From an uncultured Acidobacteriota bacterium (GTDB lineage: Bacteria > Acidobacteriota > Vicinamibacteria > Vicinamibacterales > 2-12-FULL-66-21): DNA of 64,000 nt. Made by a program: the position numbers and the translations under genes. The stretch is from contig CAWARA010000019.1 of NCBI GenBank assembly GCA_963784195.1, positions 38,088-102,087 of the forward strand, in the 5' to 3' direction. This document shows positions 13,557 to 60,014 of the stretch, piece after piece. Positions within the stretch are counted from its first letter, which is position 1. Each line of letters starts with the position of its first letter. Below the pieces are notes generated by a model. It saw nothing but the letters and a program-made list of their open reading frames with translations, did not search any database and was not told where the DNA came from.

Positions 13557-14142
13557 TGTGCCTCCTGCTTTCCAGGATCTTCGCCATCTCCCTCCGGCCG
13601 ATCGACAGATGCCACCTCACCGTCACCGCACTGACGCCGAGGAGCTTCGCAATCGAAGGTATCGGCATGCCCTCGAGCTCGTACATCACGAGGATGGCGC
13701 GCCGTTTCGGAACGAGTTGCCCCAGCGCCTGCTGCACGAGAGAGCGCGCGATCAGCGCCGGCTCCGGATCGGAGGACTGGTACGGCCCATCGAGCTCGCC
13801 GCTCAACGCGCCATTCCGCTGCACAGCCAGCCGCCGCCAGCGGTCGCGGCAGATGTTAATGAGTACACGCACCAACCAGGCTTCTTCGTTGGGCGTCCCG
13901 TTCGGCACCGAGGCAGGCGAGCGCGCGGCGCGCAGGAAGGTTTCCTGGACGACATCCCGTGCGTCTTCGCTGCTCCCGCTCAGCCGTCTGGCCAGCCGGA
14001 AGAGCCTCTGGTGATGAGTATCGAACAGCGTCCCCAGACGCCTGGAAAAGTCCTCGGCGGCCCCATCCGCTGCCGCAGGCATCGCGATAGCCTGTCCGGT
14101 CATACGTCTGCTAAACGCCGCAAGCCCCGGGATTGTTGGCAT
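13540..14142 (-). CDS. ECF RNA polymerase sigma factor
   Basis: Region 2 (ARDVVQETFLRA, AWLVRVLINICRD) and region 4 (IAKLLGVSAVTVRWHL); start may be 14103. Confidence 0.9.
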   Translation of the reverse strand: MPTIPGLAAFSRRMTGQAIAMPAAADGAAEDFSRRLGTLFDTHHQRLFRLARRLSGSSEDARDVVQETFLRAARSPASVPNGTPNEEAWLVRVLINICRDRWRRLAVQRNGALSGELDGPYQSSDPEPALIARSLVQQALGQLVPKRRAILVMYELEGMPIPSIAKLLGVSAVTVRWHLSIGRREMAKILESRRHNEKPC

Positions 14143-41999: not shown

Positions 42000-43000
42000 T
42001 ACGCCTCCCGAACCAATTCGAGCGGCCGCGCGTGCGCGTACCGTTTGTGCACATCGAGCACGGCGTCTGCCATGGCGTCGAGGAAGCGGGGATGATCGTT
42101 GGCTGACGCCGCACGCGCCATGGGAAGCCCGATCTCACGACAGACACCCGCCGCCTCGACGTCGAGGTCGTAGAGCACCTCGACGTGATCGCTGACGAAA
42201 CCGATCGGGGAAATCACCGCCGCCTCGAGCCCGCGCGAACGCTCATCTCTCAGATAGTCGCAGATATCCGGCCCGAGCCAGGGATCTTCCGCCCGTCCGC
42301 TGCGACTCTGATAAACCACCGTGGCGTCCGGCTCTAGCCGGACTACGTCCGAATCCCGCTTTAGCCGCTCCATCACCTTTCCGACGCTCTCCTCGATCTG
42401 CTGCTGATACGGATAGCGTTCGGCCATCGACACCGGGATGCTGTGCGCCGTGAACACGACCTTCGCGCGATCGCGAAGCGGCGGCGGCAACTGACGGCGC
42501 GCCTCCTCGATATGGTCGACGTTGGCGGCAATGAACCCCGGATGCGTGTGCCAGTCTGCCGTGAAGGTGACCTCGACGTCCGGCAGCCCCTGCGCGGCCA
42601 GCGCGGCCCGGGCGGCGGCGACGTTTTCGCGATACTGCGTGCAGCTCGAGTAGCTCCGATGCGCGGCCGCGATGAAACCAATCGCGCGACGCACGCCGGC
42701 TTTCGCCATCGCGGCCAGCGTGTCGACGAGAAACGGGTGCCAGTTCCGCATGCCGACGTACACCGGAAGCGGCGCCCCGGCGCCGATCAACCGCGACCGC
42801 AGACCATCGGCTTGCTTCAGCGTCAGTGCGGTGATCGGCGACACGCCGCCGAAGAGCTCGTAGTGATGCGCGACTTCCTCGAGGCGGCCCGGCGCGACGC
42901 GACGTCCGCGGAGCACGTTTTCAAGGAACGGACGGATGTCAGCGGGGCCCTGCGGGCCGCCGAATGCCACGACCAACACGGCATCGAAAGGATTGAGCAC
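41999..43000 (-). CDS. hemH: Ferrochelatase
   Basis: AFGGP, HYELFGGVSP, GMRNWHP, FTAHSIP, YQSRSG..PWLGP, GFVSDHVEVLYDLD; GTG start at 43000. Confidence 0.93.
   Translation of the reverse strand: MLNPFDAVLVVAFGGPQGPADIRPFLENVLRGRRVAPGRLEEVAHHYELFGGVSPITALTLKQADGLRSRLIGAGAPLPVYVGMRNWHPFLVDTLAAMAKAGVRRAIGFIAAAHRSYSSCTQYRENVAAARAALAAQGLPDVEVTFTADWHTHPGFIAANVDHIEEARRQLPPPLRDRAKVVFTAHSIPVSMAERYPYQQQIEESVGKVMERLKRDSDVVRLEPDATVVYQSRSGRAEDPWLGPDICDYLRDERSRGLEAAVISPIGFVSDHVEVLYDLDVEAAGVCREIGLPMARAASANDHPRFLDAMADAVLDVHKRYAHARPLELVREA
42321..42346 (+). repeat. REP family B-like palindrome inside hemH
   Basis: GTGGCGTCCGGCTCTAGCCGGACTAC, translated in frame as VVRLEPDAT. Confidence 0.7.
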
Positions 43001-44179: not shown

Positions 44180-45429
44180 ATGAACCGGCCCCGCCGAATC
44201 TTCAACCTTCCACGCGAGGTGTGGCTGCTCGGGTGGGTGAGCTTCTTCACCGACACCGCGACGGAGATGATCTATCCGCTCCTGCCGCTGTTCCTGACGC
44301 GAGTGATCGGCGCGAGCGCGATGTCGCTCGGCGTGATCGAGGGCATCGCCGAAGCCGCGAACAGCGCGCTCAAGATCGTGTCGGGACGGCTCGCCGACAA
44401 GTGGGGCACCGCCAAACCGCTCGTCCTGATCGGGTACGGCCTGTCGTCGGCGGTCCGCCCCCTGATCGGCCTCGCGTCATCCTGGATCGACGTCCTCACG
44501 CTGCGTTTCGTCGACCGCCTCGGCAAAGGCGTCCGCGGCGCGCCACGTGACGCGATGCTCGTCACCTTCGCCGACGCCACCTCCCGCGGCCGCGTGTTCG
44601 GCTTCCACCGCGCCATGGATCACGCCGGCGCCGTACTCGGTCCTCTCGTGGCGGCATGTTTTCTCTATTTCTATCCCGGCGAATACCGCACCCTGTTCGC
44701 GCTGGCACTGATCCCCGGCCTGATCGTCATGCTCGTACTCTGGCGAGTGCCCGACCTGCGCACCCGTTGGCACGCCCTGGCACCGTTAGCACCGTCCGGC
44801 ACGTCCGGCACGTCCGGCACCTCCGGCACGTCCAGCACGTCTGGCACTGGTGCCACCCTTGACCGCTCTTTCTATACAGCCATCGCCATCATCACCCTAT
44901 TCAGCCTGGGCAACGCCAGCGACGCCTTTCTGCTCCTGCGTCTGAACGACCTCGGCCTCGCCGCGTTCTGGATCCCTCTGGTGTGGTCGGGGCTTCACGT
45001 GGTCAAGGTCGTGTCATCGATCCTCGGCGGCGCATGGTCGGACAGGTTCGGGCGGCGGCACTGATTGCGCTGGGATGGATCGTGTATGCGTTCGTCTATG
45101 CCGGCTTCGCAGTCTTCGACAGACCGCTGATCCTGATCGCGGTGTTCCTGTCGTACGGTCTTTACTTCGGCCTGACGGAAGGCGTCGAGCGCGCGTGGAT
45201 CGCCGATCTCGCACCGGCACATGCGCAAGGCGTTGCGTTCGGAATCTACTACGCAGCGATCGGTCTCGGCAGCCTCGCGGCCAGCCTGCTCTTCGGTTTC
45301 CTGTGGACACGAGTGTCGCCTGAAGCGGCGTTCCACACGGGCGCGGCGATCGCCCTTGTCTCGACCCTGCTGCTATACTTGATGTTTTCTCGCCGTTCTG
45401 ATGAAGCACATCCTGGTTACCAACGATGA
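44180..45429 (+). CDS. MFS transporter (frameshift near 45058)
   Basis: SFFTDTATEMIYP, DRLGKGVRGAPRD, FGFHRAMDHAGA, LGNASDAF, SDRFGR; C-terminal TMs in the 44983 frame. Confidence 0.9.
44770..44855 (+). repeat. 9-bp tandem repeat in the MFS central loop
   Basis: TCCGGCACG units encoding SGT-SGT-SGT-SGT-SST-SGT. Confidence 0.85.
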
Positions 45430-46946: not shown

Positions 46947-47023
46947 CGGGGCGTGGCTCAGCCTGGTAGAGCACTCGGTTCGGGACCGAGGGGTCGGTGG
47001 TTCGAATCCACTCGCCCCGACCA
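46947..47023 (+). tRNA. tRNA-Pro(CGG)
   Basis: CGGGGCG acceptor stem, anticodon arm CTCGG-TTCGGGA-CCGAG, T-loop GGTTCGAATCC, encoded CCA. Confidence 0.97.
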
Positions 47024-47250: not shown

Positions 47251-47720
47251 GTGGCGCGGAGGCGAAGCTGGTCACACCGGCAGGCGAATACATGGCGACC
47301 TTTTCGCCAGACGGTGCGTGGCTGGGCTACGCCTCCAACGAGTCCGGGCAGGATGAGGTCTATGTACAGGCCATATCCGAGAGCGGCAGGTGTCGCCAGG
47401 CTTGTGTCGATCGGCGGTGGAACGGGTCCCGTGTGGGCACCCGACGGCTCGGCGCTGTACCTACCGTGGCGCGTCCGGGGATCTGATGATGGTGCCGACA
47501 ACGGTGGGTGCGACGTTCACCGCAGGGAGGCCGCGTCCGTTGTTTCGCTTCAGGGGCACCTTCCGTCCGTCGGGCACTGGCGCTGCGTACGAACGTTCAT
47601 CCGGACGGCAGACGGTTCATCATGGTCTCGGGTGACGAGCGTCCGATTGCGTCGTCTGCACAAATCAACCTCGTGGTGAACTGGTTCGAGGAGCTGAAGC
47701 GGCTCATGCCGACGAAGTAG
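47251..47720 (+). pseudogene. C-terminal fragment of a PD40/TolB-like beta-propeller protein (Ser/Thr kinase-type tail)
   Basis: FSPDGAWLGYASNESGQDEVYV, VSIGGGTGPVWAPDG, HPDGRRF, INLVVNWFEELKRL spread over three frames; no N-terminus. Confidence 0.8.
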
Positions 47721-47778
47721 CGTCGTGCCGCACCGGCCGTCGTGCCGTCCGACGTTGTGAGACGCCCCGTGAGGGGTT

Positions 47779-47840
47779 ACTCCCCACTGGTCGGGTAGTG
47801 ACGACCGATTCGCGGGACGAATCGATCAACCCTGCGGCGT
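47779..47840 (+). repeat. Island recombination-like site, copy 1
   Basis: ACTCCCCACTG-GTCGGG-TAGTGACGACCGATTCGCGGGACGAATCGATCAACCCTGCGGCGT. Confidence 0.85.
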
Positions 47841-48072
47841 CACGCAGGACCTATCCGGTGTGCCGCATTTTCCGCGAGTTGGAACAACACAACCGCCTGG
47901 CTGCGAGCCGTCGACTCCCTTAGATGCGCCGGCTGAGGACATCGGTCAGCCGTCGATTCCACCTGAGCCGTTGCTGCGCGTCTTCGTGTTGCAGTCGCCC
48001 GGCGTTTTCCCACATCGCTGGTCCCACCGTCATTTATCATGCCCGAGTCCTCCACCTCGAAAGGGCGGCGAC

Positions 48073-49567
48073 ATGAAGACGACGAATCGTTGGCTCGCAC
48101 CCATCCTCTGCGGCGGCGTATCGTCGATCGTCCTATCGGCGCAAAAACCCACCCCTCATCGCGAATGCGCCGGGCTGACCAGCCTCACGCTGCCCGACAT
48201 CAAGATCGGCGAGGCGGTCGCCGTGCCCACCGCAACCAGCGGTGACATTCGAGCGGCGCACTGCCGCGTCACCGGCGTCATCGGCACGGAGATCCGCTTT
48301 TCCCTGCTGCTACCCGACAATTGGAACGGCAAGTTCATGATGGGTGGGGGCGGCGGGTTCGTCGGCATGATCGACAATCAGGCGAAAACAACCGTGAACG
48401 ACGGCTATGCGACCGTCGGCACCGACACCGGCCACCAGGGAGAGATGTTCGACGCAAGCTGGGCGCTCGACAATGTCGAGCGGCAAGTGAATTACGGATA
48501 CGTCGCGGTGCACCGCACAGCCGAAACCGCCAAGGCGATTCTCCGGCACTACTACGGCGCGACCGAGAAGCATTCGTACTTTTCGGGCTGCTCGAATGGC
48601 GGCCGACAGGGCTTGATGGAAGCGCAGCGCTTTCCAGACGACTTCGACGGCATCGTCGTCGGGGCGCCTGTACACGACTTCGTGGGGCTGGCCGCACAGT
48701 TCGTCAGGGACGCGCAGGCGGTGTTCCCCGATCCGCGCAACCTGTCGGCGCCGATGTTCACGCTCGAGACATTGAAGTCGGTCGAGGCGCAGATCGTCGA
48801 GAAGTGCGATGCCGTCGATGGAGTCAAGGACGGCCTCCTGGAGGACCCGCGGCGGTGCAACGTCGACCTCGCTGGATTGGCCGGCCTGTCTGATGGGCAG
48901 CGAGCGGCGCTGAGGAAGATGTATGCCGAGACGAGTGGTAAAGCGGGCGCAATCTATCCCGCACGACCGGTGGGCGGCGAAGGCGAGGTCGACAGCTGGC
49001 CAGTATGGATCACGGGCGGTAGCCCCTATGCCACACCCCAGGCCCCAAGTCTGGGCTTCGCATTGGCCACGCACTTCTTCAAGTTCCTCGTGTTCAACGA
49101 TCCCCTCCTGGGACTACAGCGGCTACGACGTCGCGAACGCGCACAAGGACGCGAGGCTCGCTGCGACGTTCATGAACGCGACCAATCCGGATCTCGACGC
49201 GTTCAAGGCGAAAGGCCGCAAGCTGATCGTGTGGCACGGATGGTCAGACGCGCTCACCGCGCTCGCGAGCATCAAGTACTACGAGCAGGTCCAGGAGCGT
49301 GACGCTGCGGTGCGCGACTACTTCCGCATGTTCTTGATGCCGGGTGTGCTGCACTGCAGTGGGGGACATGGTCCCGATACGGTCGACTGGCCGGCGGCGA
49401 TCGCTGACTGGGTCGAGAACGGCAAGGCGCCGGACCGGGTGATCGCGCGACAGGCCGCGGCCGGCAGCGCCGTGTCGCGGACGCGTCCCCTGTGCCCGTA
49501 TCCGCAGCATGCGGAGTACACGGGCGCGGGCAGCACGGACGACGCAGCGAACTTCGTCTGCCGTTAG
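48073..49567 (+). CDS. Tannase/feruloyl esterase family hydrolase (frameshift near 49105)
   Basis: TDTGH, GCSNGGRQG, FPDDFDGIVVGAP, KLIVWHGWSD, PGVLHC.GG, TRPLCPYP. Confidence 0.92.
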
Positions 49568-49767
49568 CGACGATGGTGCGGGGCTGAGTTCGGCCGAGCC
49601 GATCGAGGCCTCAGACGGGTCAGCGGATGTGAGCCGTGCGGCGGTTCGATTCCTATCCGCGGCGGGGCTTCGACCGTCGTTAAGCTGTTGACCGTGTTTG
49701 GCGCGTAGTGGTGAGCCATACGTGAATCGAACCGGCCCCGATGAAGCGGCCATCCAGCTTTTGGTTC

Positions 49768-49788
49768 ACCCCCCAGTAGTCGCCCAGT
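49768..49788 (+). repeat. Island recombination-like site, left-half copy
   Basis: ACCCCCCAGTA-GTCGCC-CAGT, preceded by GGTTC as at 57398. Confidence 0.6.
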
Positions 49789-50254
49789 CTTTGCTAATCC
49801 GCCGAGTACACGCTCGAATCGCGCTATTCAACTGGGGCGACGAACTGCAGCGGTTCGGGTTGGTCACGTTTTTGTTACAGGGTAGGCAAGGTGAGGGTGA
49901 AGGTAAAGATCAGCTCCTCGCGTCCACGCTCCTGCACCTGGGGGCTTGCGCGGATCGGTTTACACTACGCCGTTTGTCGCGGCGAATCCCACACCGCGAC
50001 ATCACCGATAACCACTCAATTCCTCCTGCGACAGCGCGTACGCGCGAACCAACACTTCGTGCGCACAATTAAAGTCACTGTTGTGAGGGAGGAGGAGCTC
50101 GCGGCGGTCGTCGCCAGCACTTTTGGCCGCCTGCGTCCCGATCAACGTGGTCACGAGTGACTGTGCTGAGCCGTACACGACAAGGGTCTCCGTCGTGGTG
50201 GCGCGATGTATTCCCCATGACGCCCGCGCAACGCCGAAGAAGGTCAGATATGTA

Positions 50255-50442
50255 CTACCGCGTAAAGTTGATCGTGACGGTCACGAGAACAGGCACGGGC
50301 ACGCCGTTCAGAAGCGTCGGCGTGTACCTCCCACTGCCGCACGGCGTCAAGCGCGGCCTGGTCGAGCAGCGGGATCGACCGCACTACCTTCGCGTCTATG
50401 ACTTTCCCGTCGGGTCCAATCGTCGCTTCGATCGTGACCGCT
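50255..50442 (-). pseudogene. TonB C-terminal domain fragment
   Basis: VTIEATIGPDGKVIDAKVVRSIPLLDQAALDAVRQW / YTPTLLNGVPVPVLVTVTINF. Confidence 0.8.
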
Positions 50443-50817
50443 GTCGCGGGCAAAGAGAAGGCCGATGCCATCGCGGCCAAAAAGAAAGCCGATGCCGCAG
50501 CCAGGGCGAAGGCCAAGGCGGCGGCGGTCCGCATAGCCCTGGGTCTCTAACAGCTTCCGGTTTCGATGTTCCGGACGGCCCGCTTCGCGCTCGCGGTCAC
50601 GGGCTGCGCGTCACCGCCCACCGCGGACGTGGATGCGGCCAAGGCCGCCGTCGACCGGGCCGCGACCGGCCGCGCGGATCAGTATGCCGCCGCGTCGCTC
50701 AAGGCTGCCCAGGATGCCCGGGGAGCCGCTCGACGCTGAGCTGAAAGCGCAGGGACCATTGGCAACGTTTGTTGACAGCCGCACTTGGGGGCCGACAAGC
50801 AAGGCGTTCGGAGAATA

Positions 50818-50885
50818 ACTCCCCCGTCGTCGCAAAGTGACGACCGATTCGCGGGCCGAAGTCGATCGACCTTGCGGCGTTTATC
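50818..50885 (+). repeat. Island recombination-like site, copy
   Basis: ACTCCCCCGTC-GTCGCA-AAGTGACGACCGATTCGCGGGCCGAAGTCGATCGACCTTGCGGCGTTTATC. Confidence 0.85.
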
Positions 50886-51064
50886 AGAATTAATCAGTCG
50901 CGCGATCGGTCAAGGGTCGAGCCGACGACTGCACATTCGCGCTAGCCTCAGTCGTCGACTGAGCCAGGAATAGACAAAAAGGGGGTCATGGTTCCGGCAA
51001 GTCCGCTGTGCAAACCAGGACAGACAGTCGCGCCGCCGGTCTGCCATGCTCAGCCAACAGACGT

Positions 51065-52732
51065 ATGGCCGCGGCGACCCACACACTCGACACCAGGACC
51101 GCTGACACTGGCGCCGAGGTGCGCCGGCAAGAAGCGCTCCTCAAGACCGGCGCGCTGCAGAACGCCATCCTCAACAGCGCCAACTTCTCGAGCATCGCCA
51201 CCGACGACAAGGGTGTCATCCAATTGTTCAACGTCGGCGCCGAGCGGATGCTCGGGTATGCCGCTGCCGACGTTCTCAACAAGATTACGCCGGCCGATAT
51301 TTCCGACCCTCAGGAGCTGATTGCCCGCGCCGACACTCTCAGCGTGGAACTGGGCACGACGATTTCGCCCGGTTTCGATGCGCTGGTGTTCAAGGCCTCG
51401 CGCGGCATAGAAGATATCTACGAGCTCACCTACATTCGCAAGGACGGCAGCCGCTTCCCCGCGATTGTATCGGTCACGGCATTGCGCAACGATCAGGGCG
51501 GGATCATCGGCTACCTCCTGATCGGCACCGACAACACGGCCCGCAAGCGCGTCGAGGCGGAGCAGCAAAAACTCGATCAACGTCTTCGCGACCAGCACTT
51601 CTACACGCGATCGCTGATCGAGTCCAACATCGATGCCCTGATGACCACCGACGCCGCCGGCATCATTACCGACGTCAATCGGCAGATGGAGGCGCTCACC
51701 GGATGCACGCGAGACGAGCTGATCGGCGCACCGTTCAAGAAACACTTCACCGATCCGGCGCGCGCCGCTGCTGGCATCAAGCTGGTGCTGCGGGAAAAGA
51801 AGGTCACCAATTACGAGCTCACCGCGCGTGCGCGCGACGGCAAGATGACCGTCGTGTCCTACAACGCGACGACGTTCTACGACCGCGATCGCACCTTGCA
51901 GGGTGTGTTCGCCGCTGCCCGCGATATCACCGAGCGCAAGCACATCGAGCAAGTCCTCCAGGAGAAAAACCTCGAACTCGAAATCGCTAAGTCCGTCGCC
52001 GAGCAGACCGTCGAACGCCTCGAGGAAGTGGAACAGCTCAAGAAGGGGTTTCTGTCCACCGTCAGCCACGAGTTGCGCACGCCGTTGACTTCGATTCGCG
52101 GATCCCTCGGCCTGCTCGCGTCCGGCGCCGCGGGCCCGTTGTCGGACCAGGTGGTCGAGATCGTTGCACTCGCGGAGCGCAATGCCATCCGTCTGATGGC
52201 GTTGATTGAAGACATTCTCGATCTGGAGCGGCTCGAAACCGGCAAGATCGACCTGCACATCACCGACGTCCCGATTGCCTCGATTCTCCGCCGCGCAATG
52301 GAGTCGCTCGCCGCCTTCGGCGCACACGGCGTCACGGTCGAGGCCCCGACCGTGTCGTCGTCCATCCATGGCGACGCCGATCGGATCGTGCAGGTGCTCG
52401 TCAACCTCCTGTCGAACGCCGTGAAGTTTTCTCCGCCCGGTGGCGTGGTGACGATTGCCGTGACCGCAAACGGTAAGTGGACGGAGTTCCGCGTCAGCGA
52501 TCATGGCCGCGGTGTGCCCGCCGTCCATCGGCGGGCGATCTTCGAGCGGTTTCGCCAGGTCGATCCATCCGACGCGCGCGAGAAGGGCGGCGCCGGACTC
52601 GGACTGGCGATCTGCAAGTCGATTGTCGAGCAGCACGGCGGCAGCATCGGCGTGGAGAGCGAGGAAGGCGCCGGCAGCGCGTTCTGGTTCCGCCTGGCGA
52701 CCGACGCGGCCGATGACAAGGCACCGTCGTGA
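51065..52732 (+). CDS. PAS-PAS sensor histidine kinase
   Basis: Two PAS/PAC domains, SHELRTPL, NLLSNAVKF, DHGRG, GAGLGL. Confidence 0.95.
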   Translation: MAAATHTLDTRTADTGAEVRRQEALLKTGALQNAILNSANFSSIATDDKGVIQLFNVGAERMLGYAAADVLNKITPADISDPQELIARADTLSVELGTTISPGFDALVFKASRGIEDIYELTYIRKDGSRFPAIVSVTALRNDQGGIIGYLLIGTDNTARKRVEAEQQKLDQRLRDQHFYTRSLIESNIDALMTTDAAGIITDVNRQMEALTGCTRDELIGAPFKKHFTDPARAAAGIKLVLREKKVTNYELTARARDGKMTVVSYNATTFYDRDRTLQGVFAAARDITERKHIEQVLQEKNLELEIAKSVAEQTVERLEEVEQLKKGFLSTVSHELRTPLTSIRGSLGLLASGAAGPLSDQVVEIVALAERNAIRLMALIEDILDLERLETGKIDLHITDVPIASILRRAMESLAAFGAHGVTVEAPTVSSSIHGDADRIVQVLVNLLSNAVKFSPPGGVVTIAVTANGKWTEFRVSDHGRGVPAVHRRAIFERFRQVDPSDAREKGGAGLGLAICKSIVEQHGGSIGVESEEGAGSAFWFRLATDAADDKAPS

Positions 52733-53091
52733 AGGTGCTGATCATCGACGATGACGCCGATATTCGCTTCGTTGCGGCGATGAGTCTTCGCGCCGGCGGC
52801 GCCATCGACGTCGTTGAGGCCAGCGGCGGCCTCGACGGCGTACGCAAGGCACGCGAGGAACCGCCGGACGTCATTCTCCTCGACATGATGATGCCAACGA
52901 TGGATGGGGCGCAGACGATCGCCGCTTTGCGGATGCAGAAGGAAACCGCGACGACGCCGGTCATCTTCCTCACGGCGAAGACGATCGCTGCCGAGATTCA
53001 GGGCATGAAGGACCTTGGCGCCGCCGGAGTCCTGATCAAGCCGTTCGACCCGCGGACGTTGGCGGCCGATGTCCTCGCCCTGCTCACGTAG
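52729..53091 (+). CDS. Single-domain response regulator
   Basis: VLIIDDD, LLDMMMP, FLTA, KPF. Confidence 0.93.
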   Translation: MKVLIIDDDADIRFVAAMSLRAGGAIDVVEASGGLDGVRKAREEPPDVILLDMMMPTMDGAQTIAALRMQKETATTPVIFLTAKTIAAEIQGMKDLGAAGVLIKPFDPRTLAADVLALLT

Positions 53092-53094
53092 CCG

Positions 53095-53880
53095 TCAGCC
53101 TCCGAGTCGAACGCGAATGCGCAGGATCAGCTCGCGCATGTCAATGGGTTTGCTCAGGAAATCGTCGGCCCCGAGCGTGAGCCCGGCGAGCCGGTGGTGC
53201 ACATTCGCACCGGTCGTCATCAGGATGACTGGGATGGCGCTCAGCTCAGGATCGCACTTGAGCAGCCGGCACACCGAAAAGCCGTCGAGCCCCGGCATGG
53301 CGATATCGAGCAGAATCAACGCCGGTCGCTCGGCGCGCACTCTGTCGACCACGCCCTCGCCCGAGCGGAGGGCGATCGGGAGGAACCCGGCGTGCGCGAG
53401 CGAGACGCCGAGAATCTTCCGCTGGTCGGCATGATCTTCAGCGATCAGGATTTTGATACCGGTACTGGGCGCGCGTTGCGGCGCCGACATGGCTGCCTCG
53501 TCCGCAAGATCATGAGTGAAGGCGCGCCGCATCTTCTCCAGTGCCACCCGTGCCAGCGGCGCATCAACCACGCCGGCGGCAAGCAGGCTCTCGAGGTCGG
53601 CCGCGCGACGGCTGATGGTGGGAAATCCGATGGTCCCGGGCAGTCCAATGAGCCGATGCACGCGGTCGGTCAGCTCCGTCGGCGGATCACTGGCGGGATG
53701 GACCAGGGCTTCTTCCAGGAGCGTGGCGATGGCGTCGTAATCTGTGACGAAAGTGGCGACGAAATGAGCACGGGTCTCGGCCAGGACGCGTGCCAGCTCG
53801 TCCGGCTGCAGAGATGACGGAATAGAAGGCTGCGAAGGCAGCCCGACGGTCATGGCTCGCGTCTCTTGGTAAGTTCCCAT
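53095..53880 (-). CDS. Hpt-like plus receiver-domain protein
   Basis: N-terminal HRLIGLPGTIG (Hpt-like), C-terminal receiver ILIAED, LLDIAMP, ADDFLSKP. Confidence 0.85.
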   Translation of the reverse strand: MGTYQETRAMTVGLPSQPSIPSSLQPDELARVLAETRAHFVATFVTDYDAIATLLEEALVHPASDPPTELTDRVHRLIGLPGTIGFPTISRRAADLESLLAAGVVDAPLARVALEKMRRAFTHDLADEAAMSAPQRAPSTGIKILIAEDHADQRKILGVSLAHAGFLPIALRSGEGVVDRVRAERPALILLDIAMPGLDGFSVCRLLKCDPELSAIPVILMTTGANVHHRLAGLTLGADDFLSKPIDMRELILRIRVRLGG

Positions 53881-53939
53881 ATTCCGAGACGTTACCGAAA
53901 AGGGCGGCCGCGATGCTGTTCCAAAACGTACAGGCGAGC

Positions 53940-54019
53940 GTCGGTCCGCGAAAGTCGCCAAGTGACGACCGATTCGCGGGACGAATCGATCAACCCTGCG
54001 GCGTTTATCGTGACCGACG
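53940..54019 (+). repeat. Island recombination-like site, copy
   Basis: GTCGGTCCGCGAAA-GTCGCC-AAGTGACGACCGATTCGCGGGACGAATCGATCAACCCTGCGGCGTTTATCGTGACCGACG. Confidence 0.88.
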
Positions 54020-54083
54020 GCGTGCGCGTCAGCCGCGGCTCACGATCGCATCGGCCGCCGTCGGCTGCAAACGCCTGTTAGCG
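54012..54083 (-). other. Integron attC-like site
   Basis: CGCTAAC (contains the hydrolase stop) - AGGCG - TTTGCAGCCG...CGGCTGAC - GCGCACGCC - GTCGGTC; L-box pairing with an extrahelical G; R' is GTC rather than GTT. Confidence 0.65.
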
Positions 54084-55049
54084 GGTGCTGTCTGAACTCG
54101 GTGCGAGACCGACCATTTTCATCACGGTTGCTTCGACCAGAGGCCATGCGCTCGACCACGGCGCAATGAGATCGAAATGTCCGATGGCGGGCAACACAAT
54201 GAGTTCGACGTCGTTTCCGAGACGCAGGGCCTTGTCCACGAACGCACGACTCTGTTCGACGGGCACGTAAGGATCTAATGCGCCGTGCAGCAGGCGATGC
54301 GGAACCCTGAGCGGCAATAGCTCAATCGGGCTCGCCTGAAGGTATCGGTCCGGTACGGCGTCCGCTGTCCCGCCAAGCAGTGGTGCAACCGAGGCATTAC
54401 AGTAGCCGGATCCGGCACTGAAGATCCGCAGGTCGCTGATGCCGGCCAGTGATACGACTCCCCGAAGAGCGAGCGGTTGGGCAGGTGAGAATAGGTTACC
54501 CTCCGGCAAGTTGCGGCGCCCTGCCAGCCACAATGCCAGGTGCCCGCCGGCGGAGTGCCCGACGAGGACCACACGCGACAGATCGAGCGAAAACTGCTTC
54601 GCGAGTGCCCGCACATGGTCGGTGGCTGCTGCGACATCTTCGAAGGTCCCAGTCCAACCACCGCCAGGGTCTCCGACGCGCCGGTATTCGATCGTCCACG
54701 TCGCAATGCCTGCTGTGGTCAACGCGCTGCTCAGATGCGAGATGTGATTAAGGTCGTTCTCAGAACGCCAGCAGCCGCCGTGAATGACTACCGCCAGAGG
54801 AAATGGGCCATCGCCGCTGGGCAAGCGCAGGTCGCCGAAGCGAAGCGCCCCCTGTCCGTAGGCCAGACGGTAATCCGCCGCGGGACGTGGCCGCTTCGAG
54901 ACATCGTCCCATGTGACTGGAGCGGGAGCCAGCTGCGCGCAGAAAGCGCAGGCAACGGTCGCGCACAGAATTGGCAGGCGTTTTTTCAGTCGACAACCCC
55001 GATAGTGTCGTGGGCACTCCAGAGCGGAGATTACCACTGTCTCGCTCAT
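54078..55049 (-). CDS. Alpha/beta hydrolase (esterase/lipase)
   Basis: IHGGCW, IEYRRVG..GGGW, GHSAGG, LHGALD..VP, GHF. Confidence 0.92.
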   Translation of the reverse strand: MSETVVISALECPRHYRGCRLKKRLPILCATVACAFCAQLAPAPVTWDDVSKRPRPAADYRLAYGQGALRFGDLRLPSGDGPFPLAVVIHGGCWRSENDLNHISHLSSALTTAGIATWTIEYRRVGDPGGGWTGTFEDVAAATDHVRALAKQFSLDLSRVVLVGHSAGGHLALWLAGRRNLPEGNLFSPAQPLALRGVVSLAGISDLRIFSAGSGYCNASVAPLLGGTADAVPDRYLQASPIELLPLRVPHRLLHGALDPYVPVEQSRAFVDKALRLGNDVELIVLPAIGHFDLIAPWSSAWPLVEATVMKMVGLAPSSDSTR

Positions 55050-55082
55050 GTCATCCTGCTCCTTCGGGAGGTCTCGACTCGA

Positions 55083-55130
55083 TCGGCGGCGGTGTCATCA
55101 TCGCGTCCGCCGCCGTCGGTTGAAAGCCGA
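55083..55130 (-). other. Degenerate attC-like remnant upstream of the hydrolase
   Basis: TTTCAACCGACGGCGGCGGACGCGATGATGACACCGCCGCCG resembles the interior of the site at 54012-54083. Confidence 0.45.
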
Positions 55131-55135
55131 TGCTA

Positions 55136-55213
55136 ACTCCTCATAAGTCGCCAAGGGGCTAAGAATCTGCGGGTGGCGATTCCTTGTCACTGCGGCGTTT
55201 ATCGCGACCGACG
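55136..55213 (+). repeat. Island recombination-like site, diverged copy
   Basis: ACTCCTCATAA-GTCGCC-AAGGGG...CTGCGGCGTTTATCGCGACCGACG. Confidence 0.8.
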
Positions 55214-55440
55214 TCTTCGGAACGCGCGATCCCGTGGATTCCTTTCTCCGCTGCTGCGGCTGAGATCGTCGCGGTGTCGAGATAGCGAAGGAACACGGTA
55301 TTTTTCGCGAATCGCGGCAAGTAGGCAACGGCGAGGGCATCGATTGCGACGTTTGTTTTGATCTCCTCGGCCATCGTGGGCTGCGCTGACATTTCCGAGA
55401 TGCGCCCCGCGTCAAAGAAGGCGTATCGTTACATCGTTCG

Positions 55441-57195
55441 ATGTTGGATGACGGCAACAGTCCGATCCCGCAGTCGCGACTCGGGAGGGTGTTCGCGCCT
55501 CTCCTCGTCAGCCTGCTCGTAATCGTGGCGCTCCTGCCAGCCACGCGCGTCGGGTTCGGCGCCGACGACACGTACCTGCTCGCGCATGTGCAGTCCCCCG
55601 ACTGGCGGACGCGTCTATTCGCCTTCAACGTCGACCGTCCGTCGGAGCACTACGGCGCGTGGTGGGAGGGCGTGCGCTATCAGCGACGGTTCGTCCGCCT
55701 GCTGCCGAGCGCGCTGATGGCGGCGGAGGTGGCGACGCTCGGGCAACGCCCGTGGCCCCTTCATCTCGTGTCCCTCGCGCTGCACCTCGTCAACGTGCTG
55801 CTCATATATCGACTCGGCCGGCGCTGGCTGGGGCACGCGGGAAAGGCGGCGCTCGTGGCGGCGATGTTCGGCGTACATCCGGTGGCCGTGGAGCCCGTGA
55901 GCTGGTTCGCGACGCAGCCACTGCTCGTGGCAACCACCTGTACGTTGCTCTCCGTGGAGTCGTGGATCCGTTATCGCGCCGGTGAAGGACGCAATTGGTT
56001 ATTCGCAGCGCTGGTGGCCGTTTTCGCGGCCGTGACGAGTTATGAGGCCGCAGTGCCGCTGCCTCTGCTCATCGTAGCCGGCGACGTAGTGTGGCTGCGG
56101 AACGACCGTGCCGCTGGCTCTCGCTGGCCTGCGCGCGCGGCGCTGGTCGCTCTTCTTGTCCCGTATTTCGTCCTCGTCAAGTTGAATCAGGCCGGCACGA
56201 CCGCGTTGGAGATCTCCCATCGCCTAACGGTGGCTGAAGCCTGGACTGTCGCCCGCGTCGATCTGGCCAACTATCTGTTCAAGGCGCTGGGCCTGGTTCA
56301 GCCGGGCAGGCCACAGGACTACTGGATCTACAACGCCCTGGGTGAGCCCGCCGCACTCCTGCTGTTGATTCTCGTGAGCCTTCCAGTCGCCTGGTGGGCG
56401 CGTCGGCGTCCGCTCGCGCTGTTCGGGCTGTTCGTCTTCTTCGCGCTGCTCGCTCCGCCCTGGGTGGTGCGTGCCACCATCGGCTCTCTCAATATCCCGT
56501 CGTTACGCGCGGTCTACCTTCCGCTCCTGGGCCTGGCCGCGGTGGTCACCGCCGCTCTGTCCACGACGCATTTCCGGAACGCCGCGGTGATCGCTGCGCC
56601 ACTGCTCGCCGCCGCTTGCATCCTCGACAGGCAACCGCATCAGGGGGTAGGCTTCGGAGGAGCTGCGCGGGGGAGCGTTCTGACACGCAAGTTGCTGGAC
56701 GCGATCGATCCGGCGCGGCCCGTGATTGTTGTGGGCGGTTTTGCGAACGTCCCGAAGCGGAGCGGCTGCTTGTATGACGTGAGTCTCGATTGGCCCGGCC
56801 GTGTGGAGCTGAGGCTCGTCCCACCTGCCCGATCCGGCGCTTTACCGCATCTGATCCGAACGAGCGAGCGCACATTCACGGCGTCCGCGCCAGAGGGATT
56901 CGTCGTCCCGCTGGCGCGCGAACCTCTCCCCGGACCGGCGGCGGCTCGCGGTCGCTTTAACGCCGGCGGATTCCGCGTCGACCGCGAGCCGCCGCCTCTA
57001 GTTCGCGAAGGACGCCAGCGGGTCGCGGATGCGATTGTGGAGGTCGAGGCGCGCGACACGGAAGCGATCCGCTCCTTGCGGTACACACTCGATCGGCCTC
57101 TCGATGACTACGTGTTTCTCGCCGCCGAGGGGTGCAGTCAGGTCCGGCTGGCGGTGTTCGACCGTTCTGCGTCCACGTCCGCGCCGCAGCGGTGA
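55441..57195 (+). CDS. Multi-pass membrane protein (GT-C / ArnT-TMTC-like N-terminus)
   Basis: ADD motif, HLVSLALHLVN, FGVHPVAVEPVSW, SYE, about 10 hydrophobic segments. Confidence 0.7.
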   Translation: MLDDGNSPIPQSRLGRVFAPLLVSLLVIVALLPATRVGFGADDTYLLAHVQSPDWRTRLFAFNVDRPSEHYGAWWEGVRYQRRFVRLLPSALMAAEVATLGQRPWPLHLVSLALHLVNVLLIYRLGRRWLGHAGKAALVAAMFGVHPVAVEPVSWFATQPLLVATTCTLLSVESWIRYRAGEGRNWLFAALVAVFAAVTSYEAAVPLPLLIVAGDVVWLRNDRAAGSRWPARAALVALLVPYFVLVKLNQAGTTALEISHRLTVAEAWTVARVDLANYLFKALGLVQPGRPQDYWIYNALGEPAALLLLILVSLPVAWWARRRPLALFGLFVFFALLAPPWVVRATIGSLNIPSLRAVYLPLLGLAAVVTAALSTTHFRNAAVIAAPLLAAACILDRQPHQGVGFGGAARGSVLTRKLLDAIDPARPVIVVGGFANVPKRSGCLYDVSLDWPGRVELRLVPPARSGALPHLIRTSERTFTASAPEGFVVPLAREPLPGPAAARGRFNAGGFRVDREPPPLVREGRQRVADAIVEVEARDTEAIRSLRYTLDRPLDDYVFLAAEGCSQVRLAVFDRSASTSAPQR

Positions 57196-57397
57196 GTCGC
57201 TCACCCGCCCAGCTCGCTCGATTTAGAGCACGAGCCGCAGCGTCGCCCTTCGGCGCCCAATCAAGCGCCTGCCGCCGTACGCCGTTGCAATAACTCAATT
57301 GCCGCATCCAGCACGAGCCGCAATTTCGGTCGTGAGAGCGATCGCGGTCAGGCACCTCGCTGACGCAGGATGCGACGGCGTAGCAGCGTCGCGGTTC

Positions 57398-57418
57398 ACT
57401 CCCCATAAGTCGCGAAGT
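57398..57418 (+). repeat. Island recombination-like site, left-half copy
   Basis: ACTCCCCATAA-GTCGCG-AAGT. Confidence 0.7.
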
Positions 57419-57596
57419 ATTTTTCGATGTTCGCCGGGGGCTCCCAGGGGTCCGACCCAAAACTCGGCAAACACTAGCCCGCACTGAGGACCGATCCGCT
57501 CCCCACACCGCTGCGCTAGTATGATTTGGAGCGACGACCTGTCGCTTCACGATCACGCCGGATCTATTCGCGACGCCGATCACGGAGGTTCATATC

Positions 57597-57875
57597 ATGA
57601 GCATCGTTGTCCGTTTCAGCCCCATCGCCCTCACTGCCAACAAGTACGACGAGACGATTCGCCAAATCAAGAACGCGGGCGAATGGCCACCGGCCGGGCT
57701 CGACTACCACGTCTGCTTCGGTGCGGATGGCAACCTTAAGGTCAGCGAGACCTGGAACTCGCGGGAGCAGTTCGAAGCCTTCGGCAAGCGTCTGATGCCG
57801 ATCCTCGCGGGCGCCGGCATCCAGTTCGCCAACCCGCCGGATATCTTCGAGGTTCACAACATCGTCAAGGGCTGA
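57597..57875 (+). CDS. Small hypothetical protein (dimeric alpha+beta barrel-like)
   Basis: Strong SD GGAGGT; GLDYHVCFG..LKVSETWNSREQFEAF. Confidence 0.8.
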   Translation: MSIVVRFSPIALTANKYDETIRQIKNAGEWPPAGLDYHVCFGADGNLKVSETWNSREQFEAFGKRLMPILAGAGIQFANPPDIFEVHNIVKG

Positions 57876-58037
57876 CAATCGGGCGCGGCGGCCCGATCGA
57901 GAATCGCCAATCGTTCGGGCCGCGACCGCCTCGCCGCCGGCGACCTAGTCGGCGGCACACCCACTATTGACGCTCAAACAAGAACTGTTTCAATAGTCAA
58001 CGCTGTGAGGCAGGGCCGCCGCCGAATTGGCGGCCAG

Positions 58038-58076
58038 ATCGGTCCTGGTTAGTCGCCAAGGGGCGACCGATTCGCG
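58038..58076 (+). repeat. Island recombination-like site, copy
   Basis: ATCGGTCCTGGTTA-GTCGCC-AAGGGGCGACCGAT-TCGCG. Confidence 0.8.
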
Positions 58077-58723
58077 CGAAACTCATCATGAGCCTTCGTG
58101 CCCTTGTACTCCTCGTGAGCATTTCGAAGAGCACTCATACTGGATTCTGAGAGATGCCACTCCGACAGTTGTCGATCGAATTCATCCGCGGACAACTCTC
58201 CGCATCTGGAGAGAACCGCGGCGACGATGTTTCGGCAGGCGCCCTCGTCCGGCACGGGATAGAGCGACACCAATTCCGGAAGGATGTCAAAGGCCACAAC
58301 ACTCTGCGACCATGAGAACAACGTCACTGATGCGCGACCGGCCAACGCCTTCGATTTCGACCGGGCCAGTCCCAGCAGTGCCTGAATCCACGCCGCGCGT
58401 TTGTCGCTCGGCACGTCGCCCAAAGGGACGCCCTGTAACCCAACGGTTGCAGCCAGCACGAAGTACGGCACATCGTGCGAGTTCAGAGCACGGTCGAGCG
58501 CCTCGAACCGCAATGTCGCTGGAATCAAATCAGAATGAAAGAGCAGATTCGACACTGCTTGCCTATCGCTCCAGCTATGGATGACTGAGGCAACGAGGGC
58601 CGACTCCTCCGGCGTCAGAGAAATGTCTTCCCGTGCCCGCAGGAGTGCATCGAGGTCATCGGCCTTCAAGAATGTCTCAAGTGACGTCACGCTAGTCCCT
58701 GAAGCGGGTGAGTCTCGTTCCAC
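58049..58723 (-). CDS. Hypothetical helical protein, probably truncated
   Basis: 224 aa ORF with visibly lower GC; the last residues are encoded by the repeat site; the 5' end abuts an NTF2-like fragment. Confidence 0.55.
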
Positions 58724-59080
58724 GAACGCGCTTCACCGCACCGGCTGGCGACTCCACGTAGCTCCCTGTGAAGGAGCCCCACTCGAAAGCCACCCGTCCG
58801 TGACCGTCAGGTCCTTGGTCTCCGGGACATAGCTCAAGACACGTAGCTCCGGAGTAGCGGCCTTCTGGCGCTCGTTGGTTGCGCGGATCGCCTCCTTGCC
58901 AATGTCGGCGTCGGCCGGCGGGCCCAGTCGCACGGCGTCGTCGGTCCCCACAGCTCTGTGAGCGCCGCCGTGTCTCTGGACAAGGTCGCAGCGACGTCCT
59001 GCCTGCGGAACTTCTCGATGGCTGCCAAGTCTCGCGTGTGCGCGTCCTCATCTTCACCCTCAAACGAGATCCTTGGAACA
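58700..59080 (-). pseudogene. NTF2/SnoaL (DUF4440-like) fragment
   Basis: [28 protein letters not shown] / [18 protein letters not shown] / VAFEWGSF over three frames, truncated. Confidence 0.7.
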
Positions 59081-59376
59081 CATGCGCCGTCAACGCACCG
59101 CACCGAAGGCGCAGAGAACCACCGCAACTAACCGAAGTGTCATGCCCCCGCATTCTCGCTTCGTCCCCCGGTAGTCCGCCGAACCAGTCGTACGCCGACC
59201 GGCATATCTCGGCCGACTCCGCAAGTCACGCAGCATAACGCCGAAACGGCCTCGCAGGAAATGTGGCCAAGTTCCACGTCGCAGGTCACTTGTTCAACTT
59301 GATCTCCTCCGACGATGACGGATTAGATCGATCTGCATAACAGCTCGCCAGCGTGGCGCGTATTGCGGCTAGGTGG

Positions 59377-59410
59377 ATAGGTCCTGCCTTGTCGCCAAGT
59401 GATGACCTAT
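59377..59410 (+). repeat. Island recombination-like site, symmetric copy
   Basis: ATAGGTCCTGCCTT-GTCGCC-AAGTGATGACCTAT; arms are 11/14 complementary. Confidence 0.8.
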
Positions 59411-59529
59411 CCGCCCTAGTACCTACTTTGTCAGATCACGGGATTTTCGAGAGATCGCGCGAGTGATCGGTTTTGGGGACATTGTACCTCAGTGTCTGAG
59501 TTCGGTACCCTGAGTGGCGGTGCACGACC

Positions 59530-59854
59530 CTCACGAGCGGCGCTGGACGCGATCAATCTCCACCTGCACGATCTCAGGCGTGAGTGCGGATCCAGGTGGA
59601 TGGATGCCGGTGTCCCGATTGCGACGATCCAGCGGTGGTTAGGGCATAGCAACGTCTCGCAAACGTCGACCTATTTGGCGGGGGTCGTGACGAAGGAACA
59701 CGACCACTTCGCACGCTTCGAAGCCCAGCAATCCGCTTGCAACCGTCTTGCAACGGATGTCGGATCAGGTGGCAAAACCAAGGCACGGACGACCACGAGG
59801 CGGAACAAAGAGCCCAATAAAACCGGTATCGACCGCGAACGGGCTATCATGTGA
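59530..59854 (+). pseudogene. Tyrosine recombinase/integrase C-terminal fragment
   Basis: HLHDLRRE (HxxR), IQRWLGHSNVSQTSTY (LGH..Y); no N-terminal domains; ends 7 bp before the att repeat. Confidence 0.88.
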
Positions 59855-59860
59855 GCTGGC

Positions 59861-59905
59861 TTCGGGACCGAGGGGTCGGTGGTTCGAATCCACTCGCCCC
59901 GACCA
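59861..59905 (+). repeat. att direct repeat (3' half of tRNA-Pro)
   Basis: TTCGGGACCGAGGGGTCGGTGGTTCGAATCCACTCGCCCCGACCA, identical to 46979-47023. Confidence 0.95.
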
Positions 59906-60014
59906 ATTTTTTCCGGGGGGCTTCGCCCCGCCGGACCCCCCTACACGCTCTCTCGCCTTCGGCTCGTTCGCTTCCGTCACTGCGCCTGCTCGCGCCTCCA
60001 GTCGTTTGCAAATT

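Follow-up and report, generated by a model that had tools for sequence, protein, structure and literature searches.

An array of attC-like hairpin sites bounding gene modules in a tRNA-Pro island of an uncultured Acidobacteriota bacterium

What are the short repeated sequences that separate unrelated genes in a tRNA-Pro island of an uncultured Acidobacteriota bacterium of the order Vicinamibacterales? We addressed this question in a window of 64,000 nt (GenBank assembly GCA_963784195.1, contig CAWARA010000019.1, positions 38,088 to 102,087 of the forward strand; coordinates given without a contig name refer to this window), taken from a genome of 7.6 Mb that is 90.5% complete (G000). A first-pass annotation had described eight copies of one motif, all in the same orientation, and had proposed that they were dif- or loxP-like sites left by repeated integration or excision of small gene modules by a tyrosine recombinase. 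Here, we conclude with moderate confidence that the island holds an integron-type cassette array that lacks an integrase and whose sites form an unusual, lineage-specific attC family.

The eight copies were recovered by repeat search and by reading of the sequence at the positions annotated, all on the plus strand, with starts at 47777/47779, 49768, 50816/50818, 53941/53943, 55134/55136, 57398, 58039/58041, and 59378/59380 (c1 to c8). Also as described, the GTCGCC core has the variants GTCGGG, GTCGCA, and GTCGCG, the left arms are of two kinds, the right arm AAGTGACGACCGAT with its hairpin tail is found in c1, c3, and c4, and CTGCGGCGTTTATC in c3, c4, and c5. The 20-mer GTCGCCAAGTGACGACCGAT gave 5 matches at up to 3 mismatches against 0.03 expected, a count reached by none of 100 shuffles, and the 5′-arm 17-mer ACTCCCCATAAGTCGCC gave 4 at the same tolerance against 0.10 expected, one of which (2768, minus strand) lies outside the island. 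For the short 3′ motif CTGCGGCGTTTATC, 4 matches at up to 2 mismatches compare with 0.54 expected, and the match at 14110 (minus strand) is not in the island; since 2 of 100 shuffles reach this count, the motif is weak when taken alone.

The copies are unequal. Four (c1, c3, c4, and c5) are complete and the others are half or truncated sites: c2 and c6 consist of the 5′ arm and GTCGCC-MAG only and then run into other DNA, and c7 and c8 are truncated. A covariance model (CM; R1) trained on nine sites, namely the four complete copies and five other sites, scored its training copies at 76–84 bits, and c7, c2, and c8 at 16.9 (E 0.094), 14.1 (E 0.49), and 13.2 bits (E 0.84), respectively. c6 was not among the R1 matches listed for the window, and an equally weak match lies outside the island (42836–42920, minus strand, E 0.19).

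Across 62 non-identical sites, the consensus is GRTTAC-TCC-N6-GTCGCC-AAGTG-(variable hairpin)-CACT-GC-GGCG↓TT(T/A)(A/C)TCG (the arrow marks the boundary discussed below), a unit of 75–80 nt with a conserved 5′ arm, GRTTAC-TCC-N6, and the 3′ end CACTGCGGCG↓TT. Single-strand folds place GTCGCC on the 5′ strand at the base of an imperfect hairpin of about 50 nt, in which CGCC/GGCG and AG(TG)/(CA)CT are paired and some bases bulge. Conservation extends over the stem base and both flanks; the middle is variable in both sequence and length, although a stem usually persists, and quite different stems occupy the same frame (GTGGCGA/TCGCCAC, GACCGATTCG/CGAATCG, and CCGAACGGC/GCCGTTGG). On the 5′ side, every base of GTCG is invariant (62 of 62 sites each), and TCC is less strict (T 57, C 47, C 38); on the 3′ side, 49 of 52 sites have GGCG-T and 34 of 52 the second T. 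The plus strand can thus be parsed into R″ (5′ arm), spacer, L″ (AAGTG...), loop, L′ (...CACT), spacer GCGGC, and R′ (GTTTATC). An alignment of 11 copies with MAFFT and RNAalifold recovered a stem of only 3 bp, because the variable middle misaligns, and was replaced by single folds and anchored counts.

This anatomy is not the dif- or loxP-like one of the first-pass annotation, with inverted arms around a 6-bp crossover core: GTCGCC is the base of a stem, the unit is 75–80 nt long and its cleanest boundary is at the 3′ end. The change from ATAGGTC/GACCTAT to ATCGGTC/GACCGAT, which had been taken as compensatory, is indeed present in c8 and c7, but over the 34 of 56 sites that could be anchored, the outer flanks of a site paired no better than shuffled partners. 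As with dif and pdif, short repeated sites bound gene modules here and the nearest recombinase in the genome is Xer-like, but a 75–80 nt hairpin unit differs from an architecture of 11 + 6 + 11 bp and does not qualify as either. Modules of the pdif type are bounded by oppositely oriented sites, and the earlier statement that this is not a standard pdif module stands, since all array sites share one orientation.

The hairpin is real but modest. In folds of 56 sites, the mean z-score against mononucleotide shuffles was -1.47, z fell below -2 in 18 sites, and the ends were closed in 34. This low thermodynamic significance (z > -2 in 38 of 56 copies), in a hairpin with conserved flanks whose outer boxes do not pair within a site above chance, is also what a non-recombinational repeat would show, be it REP-like (repetitive extragenic palindromic), a terminator-like hairpin or a small regulatory RNA; the breakpoints described below would then come from repeat-driven recombination and assembly breaks. 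We regard this explanation as unlikely, for reasons of distribution and mosaicism given below and also because no Rfam family matched the motif at the gathering threshold (the tRNA was the sole Rfam match in the window). A search with the pattern GTCGCSNAGN{20,50}GCGGCGTT was uninformative in these GC-rich genomes, as a reversed control gave similar counts.

A repeated coding remnant read on the minus strand (...RIGRHLATYGE) was tried as well. Different tails, translated from the minus strand, do have I-x-[KR]-x-[WLF]-A-T-[YT] in common and differ at some third positions, but the variable middle preserves base pairing and not a reading frame, copies differ by 1-nt indels (c3 versus c4), and all 11 six-frame matches in the genome have stops 10–45 residues upstream or no start, none of them lying in a long open reading frame (ORF). 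We rejected this explanation as extremely improbable.

The sites are not confined to the island. A profile of the eight copies found about ten further copies in three other loci of the genome, giving about 18 in four clusters: at least five on the minus strand of contig C13 (334.8–346.3 kb), two on C33 (169.5–170.1 kb), and one on C31 (124590), with weak ones on C16 and C25. The absence of copies outside the tRNA-Pro island, as first described, therefore holds for the window but not for the genome, and with four loci the motif is neither a genome-wide repeat nor island-specific. Of 112 genomes assigned to this bacterial family, 47 gave R1 matches at E ≤ 0.001, among them G107, which is unpublished. 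The richest genome, G036, has 17 sites, and eight of these lie on one strand over 10.5 kb (G036:C10:507205–517741) at spacings of 821–3205 nt, with one gene, in either orientation, between most site pairs. Further same-strand arrays were found in G036 (three sites on C3 and three to five on C13), G062:C7 (five to six), and G124:C5 (five), with a similar one on G018:C2, and the spacing in other genomes is often 0.8–3.2 kb. That the sites keep a single orientation whatever the direction of the genes is a reason to see them as directly repeated recombination sites and an argument against terminators or leaders; likewise, only about 18 copies in 7.6 Mb, at four loci and on one strand per cluster irrespective of gene orientation, are not what a REP-like repeat would give. 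None of 11 array loci scanned elsewhere contained a tRNA gene, so the link to a tRNA is particular to the window. Inside the G036:C10 array we also noted, by reading of the sequence, an ORF for an IS481/IS3-like DDE transposase (L068, 15518–16288).

The solitary copy on C31 is a half-type site 17 nt past the stop codon of an intact 898-aa Ser/Thr-kinase/propeller gene (L004, C31:121877–124656). Its position directly after an intact gene would suit a regulatory or terminator-like hairpin. Both c1 and the site at C13:339401 follow C-terminal fragments of the same kinase/propeller family.

The proposal that the motif bounds gene modules was borne out by the same-strand arrays of relatives and by the places where paralogue homology and metagenome contigs break. 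Within the genome, flanks and hairpins occur in different combinations: the left flanks of c1 and c3 recur at C13:339401 and C13:345024, the c2 tail at C13:338002 and on C31, and the c5 hairpin at C13:346336. The whole c6-to-c7 module is found again between the two C33 sites, with 97% identity over 498 nt (C33:170103–169606; homology from 57409). In blastn comparisons, paralogue homology begins at 57409 (c6), 49778 (c2), and 55147 (c5), and stops at 50833 (c3) and 55206 (c5). Across genera, the left flank of the site at C33:170118 runs in G036, right after GTCGCC, into a full hairpin of a different type; one flank joined to different hairpins in different genera is difficult to reconcile with a passive repeat.

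Contigs of four metagenome runs from four studies (X1, X5, X9, and X10), aligned at 90% likeness to 46.5–60.5 kb, show alternative arrangements and not molecules or frequencies; stretches that they cover thinly were excluded as evidence. In run X1, the hydrolase module continues to 55199 and then gives way to other sequence, and the membrane-protein module starts from 55198 after other sequence. This break falls at GCGGCG↓TT, between 55197 and 55198 with TT shared, and is the single clean G↓TT case. In run X5, 57414 is joined to 53960 (from the left half of c6 to the c4 hairpin), and in run X10, 58050 is joined to 53953 (from c7 to c4). Both joins go back along the window, as the junction of a circle or another order of cassettes would. 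In addition, runs X5 and X10 link 58075 with 47835 across 24 letters of other sequence, contigs of X1 and X10 cease to match at 57398 in the 5′ arm of c6, and runs X5, X9, and X10 skip about 110–123 nt ending at 59369–59379 (c8). De Bruijn contigs tend to end at repeats, and the metagenome evidence consists of contigs only, a point in favor of a non-recombinational repeat; at the 55198 break, however, a k-mer repeat fails as an explanation, because the exact stretches shared there are shorter than 31 nt.

Taken together, these observations are best accommodated by an array of integron-type cassettes. The sites here resemble integron attC sites: they appear to be imperfect palindromes with conserved ends and a variable middle, they form arrays on one strand that bound short gene modules, and one boundary falls cleanly at G↓TT. 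[quoted passage not shown] If the sites are counted as attC, the locus has the makeup of a CALIN, with eight of them on one strand in 11.7 kb and no match to the integron integrase model TIGR02249 on the contig (E ≤ 0.01), and, as in most CALINs, the array stands without an integrase; relatives carry true IntI. PMC4889954 describes most CALINs as lacking an integrase, the attC sites and CALINs of PMC4889954 and PMC8352920 match the site architecture and array logic found here, and PMC8352920 describes an Acidobacteria-specific attC model, which may already cover this site family. The first-pass view that the array is not a standard integron thus needs qualification: it is apt in that there is no integrase, genes lie in both orientations and one cassette carries three genes, but the build of the sites and the logic of the array are those of attC sites and CALINs.

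In such a system, a tyrosine recombinase of the IntI kind, acting in trans or since lost, would recognize the folded single strand and exchange strands at G↓TT, and modules of one to three genes would be cut out as circles and then reinserted. Repeated events of this kind could explain why left flanks, hairpins, and right flanks occur as a mosaic. Two modules show complementarity between their start and the 5′ arm of their own site: TTAGCG at the start of the hydrolase module pairs with TGCTAAC in the 5′ arm of the following site (6 of 7), and in the insertion sequence (IS) module on C33, GTTAGGACC pairs with GGTCCAAAC (8 of 9), as expected if the two ends of a cassette rebuild one site.

Several findings weigh against this reading. 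No integron integrase was found in the genome, the best TIGR02249 match reaching 104 bits against a cut-off of 265, and what a complete integron should have beside the array, namely intI with the extra domain specific to it, attI, and Pc, was not found. True integron integrases exist among relatives (15 of 61 genomes have one above the cut-off), but G036, with the most sites, is not one of these, and in the genomes examined the arrays are not beside a true intI, except for a single case in G013. There, a half-type site that reads away from intI precedes the longest intI ORF by about 130 nt on its upstream side (about 240 nt if measured from the profile match), which is the attI position; on the other side, at a distance of 4 kb, is a hairpin-type site. 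Apart from this weak half site, no family site was found at E ≤ 1 in the intI loci searched (20-kb stretches of G011, G013, G044, and G055, and twelve loci of 2.4–3.9 kb that also cover G011 and G013), and a repeat search revealed no obvious arrays beside intI in G011 or G013.

The sites themselves also deviate. Of the two conserved triplets of attC, GTT is mostly present and AAC mostly absent: the A needed for AAC occurs in at most 11 of 62 5′ arms, the usual reading being TAC, and GTT is complete in only about two thirds of sites (after GGC, G in 48, T in 49, and the second T in 34 of 52). The sites further differ from attC in having an additional conserved 5′ arm, GRTTAC-TCC. The presumed R boxes of a site, compared in register, formed 2.79 pairs per site, which is not above the 2.63 (sd 0.16) of shuffled partners, and the outer flanks of a site did not pair above shuffled partners either (34 of 56 sites could be anchored; the 22 others were dropped). 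This result need not be contrary, because in arrays the 3′ box belongs to the next cassette; in G036:C10, the sole array scored, the 3′ flank paired clearly with the next 5′ arm in only one of seven neighbor pairs. The cassettes are atypical for attC arrays, with genes in both orientations and one three-gene module, and half sites that have no hairpin are frequent. Finally, two other breakpoints do not fit a single crossover at G↓TT: one follows GTCGCC-MAG (57414–57418 and 58050–58060), and the other splits TTCA↓C in the c6 5′ arm (57398).

We also filtered for hairpins of the canonical AAC...GTT form. Intergenic candidates appeared in the window (49565–49685 and 54012–54084), at C13:338809, and in relatives (G036:C10 at 507316, 508426, 514677, and 515407; G124:C5:268710; G013:C28:29633). 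As matches were about as numerous on the opposite strand and inside genes, we treat these as a lead only.

A recombinase other than IntI could serve these sites. At C33:167346–169420 of the genome (L003), the second C33 site is followed by a gene for a 297-aa tyrosine recombinase and then by an IS91-family transposase gene (418 bits), and similar units lie at L070, L071, and L076. The recombinase is closest to XerA, XerD, and IntI models but falls below every NCBIfam cut-off (200 against 220 bits for the XerA type and 178–195 against 265 for IntI), and it matches positions 1–178 and 237–315 of the IntI model, skipping the stretch between them. At all five ends examined (G000 C33, G018 C2, G033 C19, and two in G062 C7), the unit end AAGCCGCTGGCGCGGCGG... 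lies 7–8 nt beyond the base of the hairpin stem (8 after GGCG in three cases, 7 after GGCGAC in two), and the other end of the unit is followed by a hairpin in the same AAGTG...CACT frame. On G062:C7 the unit stands at the end of the array of five to six sites, and among 37 genomes of family f1, which are related and not independent, sites occur in 6 of 8 with this type of recombinase against 7 of 29 without it. In G018 a frameshift has apparently merged recombinase and transposase into a single 624-aa frame, and G060 has many copies of this recombinase type.

Such a unit could mean that the system is integron-like but independent of IntI: a Xer/IntI-like enzyme of 297–302 aa without the IntI-specific stretch, carried with an IS91-family transposase as a hairpin-bounded cassette in its own right, would act on the one site type that all share, and the half sites would reflect a second crossover after GTCGCC-MAG. 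We think this unlikely. The IS may either target the hairpins or be carried as a cassette together with a recombinase serving the sites, and mere targeting would give the same association. Moreover, no copy of the unit lies near the largest array (G036:C10), the C13 array or the window, the genome has one unit for about 18 sites, and the neighboring site points in the same sense as the recombinase gene at C33, at G018, and at G062:4850 but in the opposite one at G033 and at G062:15841.

IS1111-attC elements are mobile elements that target attC hairpins. Like these and the group IIC-attC introns, the unit keeps a fixed distance to the base of the hairpin (5 of 5 ends), but it is made of an IS91-family transposase paired with a tyrosine recombinase. 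Group IIC introns are mentioned together with integrons in PMC7923331.

A further explanation takes the hairpins as ori- or ter-like end signals of IS91-type rolling-circle elements and the arrays as debris of one-ended transposition that carried neighboring genes along. In its favor, an IS91-family transposase adjoins same-frame hairpins at both unit ends, resembling IS91 and ISCR (insertion sequence common region) elements with hairpins near their ends, and arrays of unrelated cargo in one orientation are what read-through capture, as in ISCR elements, would give. Sites qualify as such ends at C33 and in G018, G033, and G062, but the eight copies of the window, the C13 array, and G036:C10 do not, and most arrays (these three included) have no IS91 transposase. 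In addition, the unit differs from IS91 and ISCR in its 31-nt terminal inverted repeats, which lie inside the hairpins, and in the recombinase gene upstream; the site beside its left end occurs in both orientations; and modules of about 1 kb with full sites on both sides fit excision and integration better. We therefore consider this explanation very unlikely, and retain the integrase-less cassette array.

The cargo agrees with the list of the first-pass annotation: a frameshifted tannase, a two-component trio, a hydrolase, a membrane protein, and three ORFs of no Pfam family. The island is limited on the left by tRNA-Pro(CGG) (46947–47023, plus strand; ARAGORN; Rfam tRNA 63.4 bits). Next comes the C-terminal fragment of a Ser/Thr-kinase/beta-propeller-type gene (47251–47720, plus), of which 47508–47720 has no Pfam match. 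From the end of this fragment through the next site, identity to C13:339371–339495 is 88%, and intact kinase paralogues end in the same way (C31:121877–124573). Site c1 is of the complete hairpin (H) type (47773–47849, plus; R1 77.7 bits as a training member; DNA fold z -2.7) and has GCGGCGTCAC in place of GTT at its 3′ end.

The tannase/feruloyl-esterase gene (47860–49567, plus) is frameshifted into two overlapping frames (47860–49302 and 48923–49567; PF07519, 1.5e-41 on the second). The candidate canonical hairpin at 49565–49685 (plus strand, TAGCGAC...GTTAAGC; regular expression and fold filter) lies 3′ of its stop and remains a weak lead. Site c2 (49757–49979, plus) is of the half (S) type, with 5′ arm, GTCGCC, CAGT, and a 200-nt tail ending in CACTACGCCGTTTGTCG (nhmmer E 7e-8 with a self-trained profile; CM E 0.49); one X1 contig matches the tail only (49780–49979). 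The TonB scraps between c2 and c3 (49977–50753) are rearranged pieces that recur with 84–100% identity at C13:345213–346267 and C4:20411–21034, some of them inverted relative to the window, and the C4 copy lies near an integrase fragment (C4:24472–24726).

Between c3 (50812–50889, plus; complete H type, folded; CM 78.2 bits, training member) and c4 lies a three-gene cargo (50991–53932) with genes on both strands by Pfam: a PAS histidine kinase (51008–52732, plus), a response regulator (52729–53091, plus), and an Hpt-receiver protein (53095–53856, minus). A chromosomal stretch of G011, from another genus (G011:C33:27490–30428), matches this module at 89% identity over 2952 nt and has no flanking sites; the homology begins about 105 nt past c3 and stops 5 nt before c4. 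The G011 stretch could have been the origin or the destination of a multi-gene cassette. Over the PAS/HisKA part of the kinase gene (51170–52103), summed contig depth is very high in each of the four metagenome runs, which probably reflects the conserved domains of many organisms and not the locus itself.

Site c4 (53937–54013, plus; complete H type; CM 83.6 bits, training member; blastn) shares its central 44 nt with c1 at 100% identity (47797–47840), and the flanks have diverged. It is adjoined by a second candidate hairpin of canonical attC form (54012–54084, CGCTAAC...GTCGGTC on the minus strand), which comes from the uncontrolled regular-expression and fold filter and from reading of the sequence. 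The CGCTAAC of this hairpin overlaps the stop codon of the hydrolase gene, and its end GTTAGCG is complementary at 6 of 7 positions to TGCTAAC in the c5 arm. The alpha/beta hydrolase gene itself (54078–55049, minus; PF20434, 8.8e-30) is flanked by a 31-nt direct repeat of 81% identity (54040–54070 and 55095–55125), both copies of which contain GCCGCCGTCGG(C/T)TG, which corresponds to the 3′ half of an attC stem that looks canonical.

Site c5 (55130–55207, plus; complete H type; CM 76.2 bits, training member), which carries the G↓TT boundary at 55197/55198, precedes a gene from the ORF list for a 584-aa predicted membrane protein of no Pfam family (55441–57195, plus). Site c6 (57391–57425, plus; half, or S, type; found by genome profile search) reads GGTTCAC-TCC-CCATAA-GTCGCG-AAGT and then ATTTTTCG..., and is followed by a 92-aa ORF with no Pfam family (57597–57875, plus), the module shared with C33. 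Site c7 (58035–58110, plus; CM E 0.094) is truncated to the 5′ arm, GTCGCC-AAGG-GGCGAC, and the start of a c4-type hairpin; two ORFs from the list, of 224 and 153 aa and no Pfam family, follow on the minus strand (58049–59153). Site c8 (59374–59452, plus; repeat search; CM E 0.84) is likewise truncated, with GGATAGGTC...GTCGCC-AAGTGAT-GACCTATCC.

The C-terminal 120 aa of a tyrosine recombinase (59492–59854, plus; PF00589, 35 bits at C19:97642–97767) remain of the island integrase. This remnant has no TIGR02249 match at E ≤ 0.01 and is a generic tyrosine-recombinase C-terminus. A direct repeat of the 3′ half of the tRNA-Pro (59856–59905, plus; repeat search; blastn 98% over 50 nt) forms the right limit. 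In a search for the empty island site, the left flank and the tRNA were syntenic in many relatives, and the right flank lay on other contigs there. Directly after the tRNA-half repeat, a G/C-rich stretch (59901–59976, GGGGGGCTTCGCCCCGCCGGACCCCCC...) recurs on about ten further contigs of the genome with 80–100% identity, and many metagenome contigs have loose ends in it; it is a short repeat dispersed in the genome and has no relation to the cassette sites. Upstream of the tRNA, five tandem copies of a 9-nt unit (TCCGGCACG) lie inside an ORF (44786–44847).

If the cassette-array reading holds, the island would be an ordinary but instructive CALIN of a soil bacterium, with a well-defined attC family that extends across the lineage and could be used to trace cassette traffic in the group. 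The placement of an IS91-plus-recombinase unit at the hairpins and the frequent half sites without a hairpin fall outside the textbook integron. The occurrence of one operon both as a cassette, in the window, and in plain chromosome, in G011, bears on how cassettes are made.

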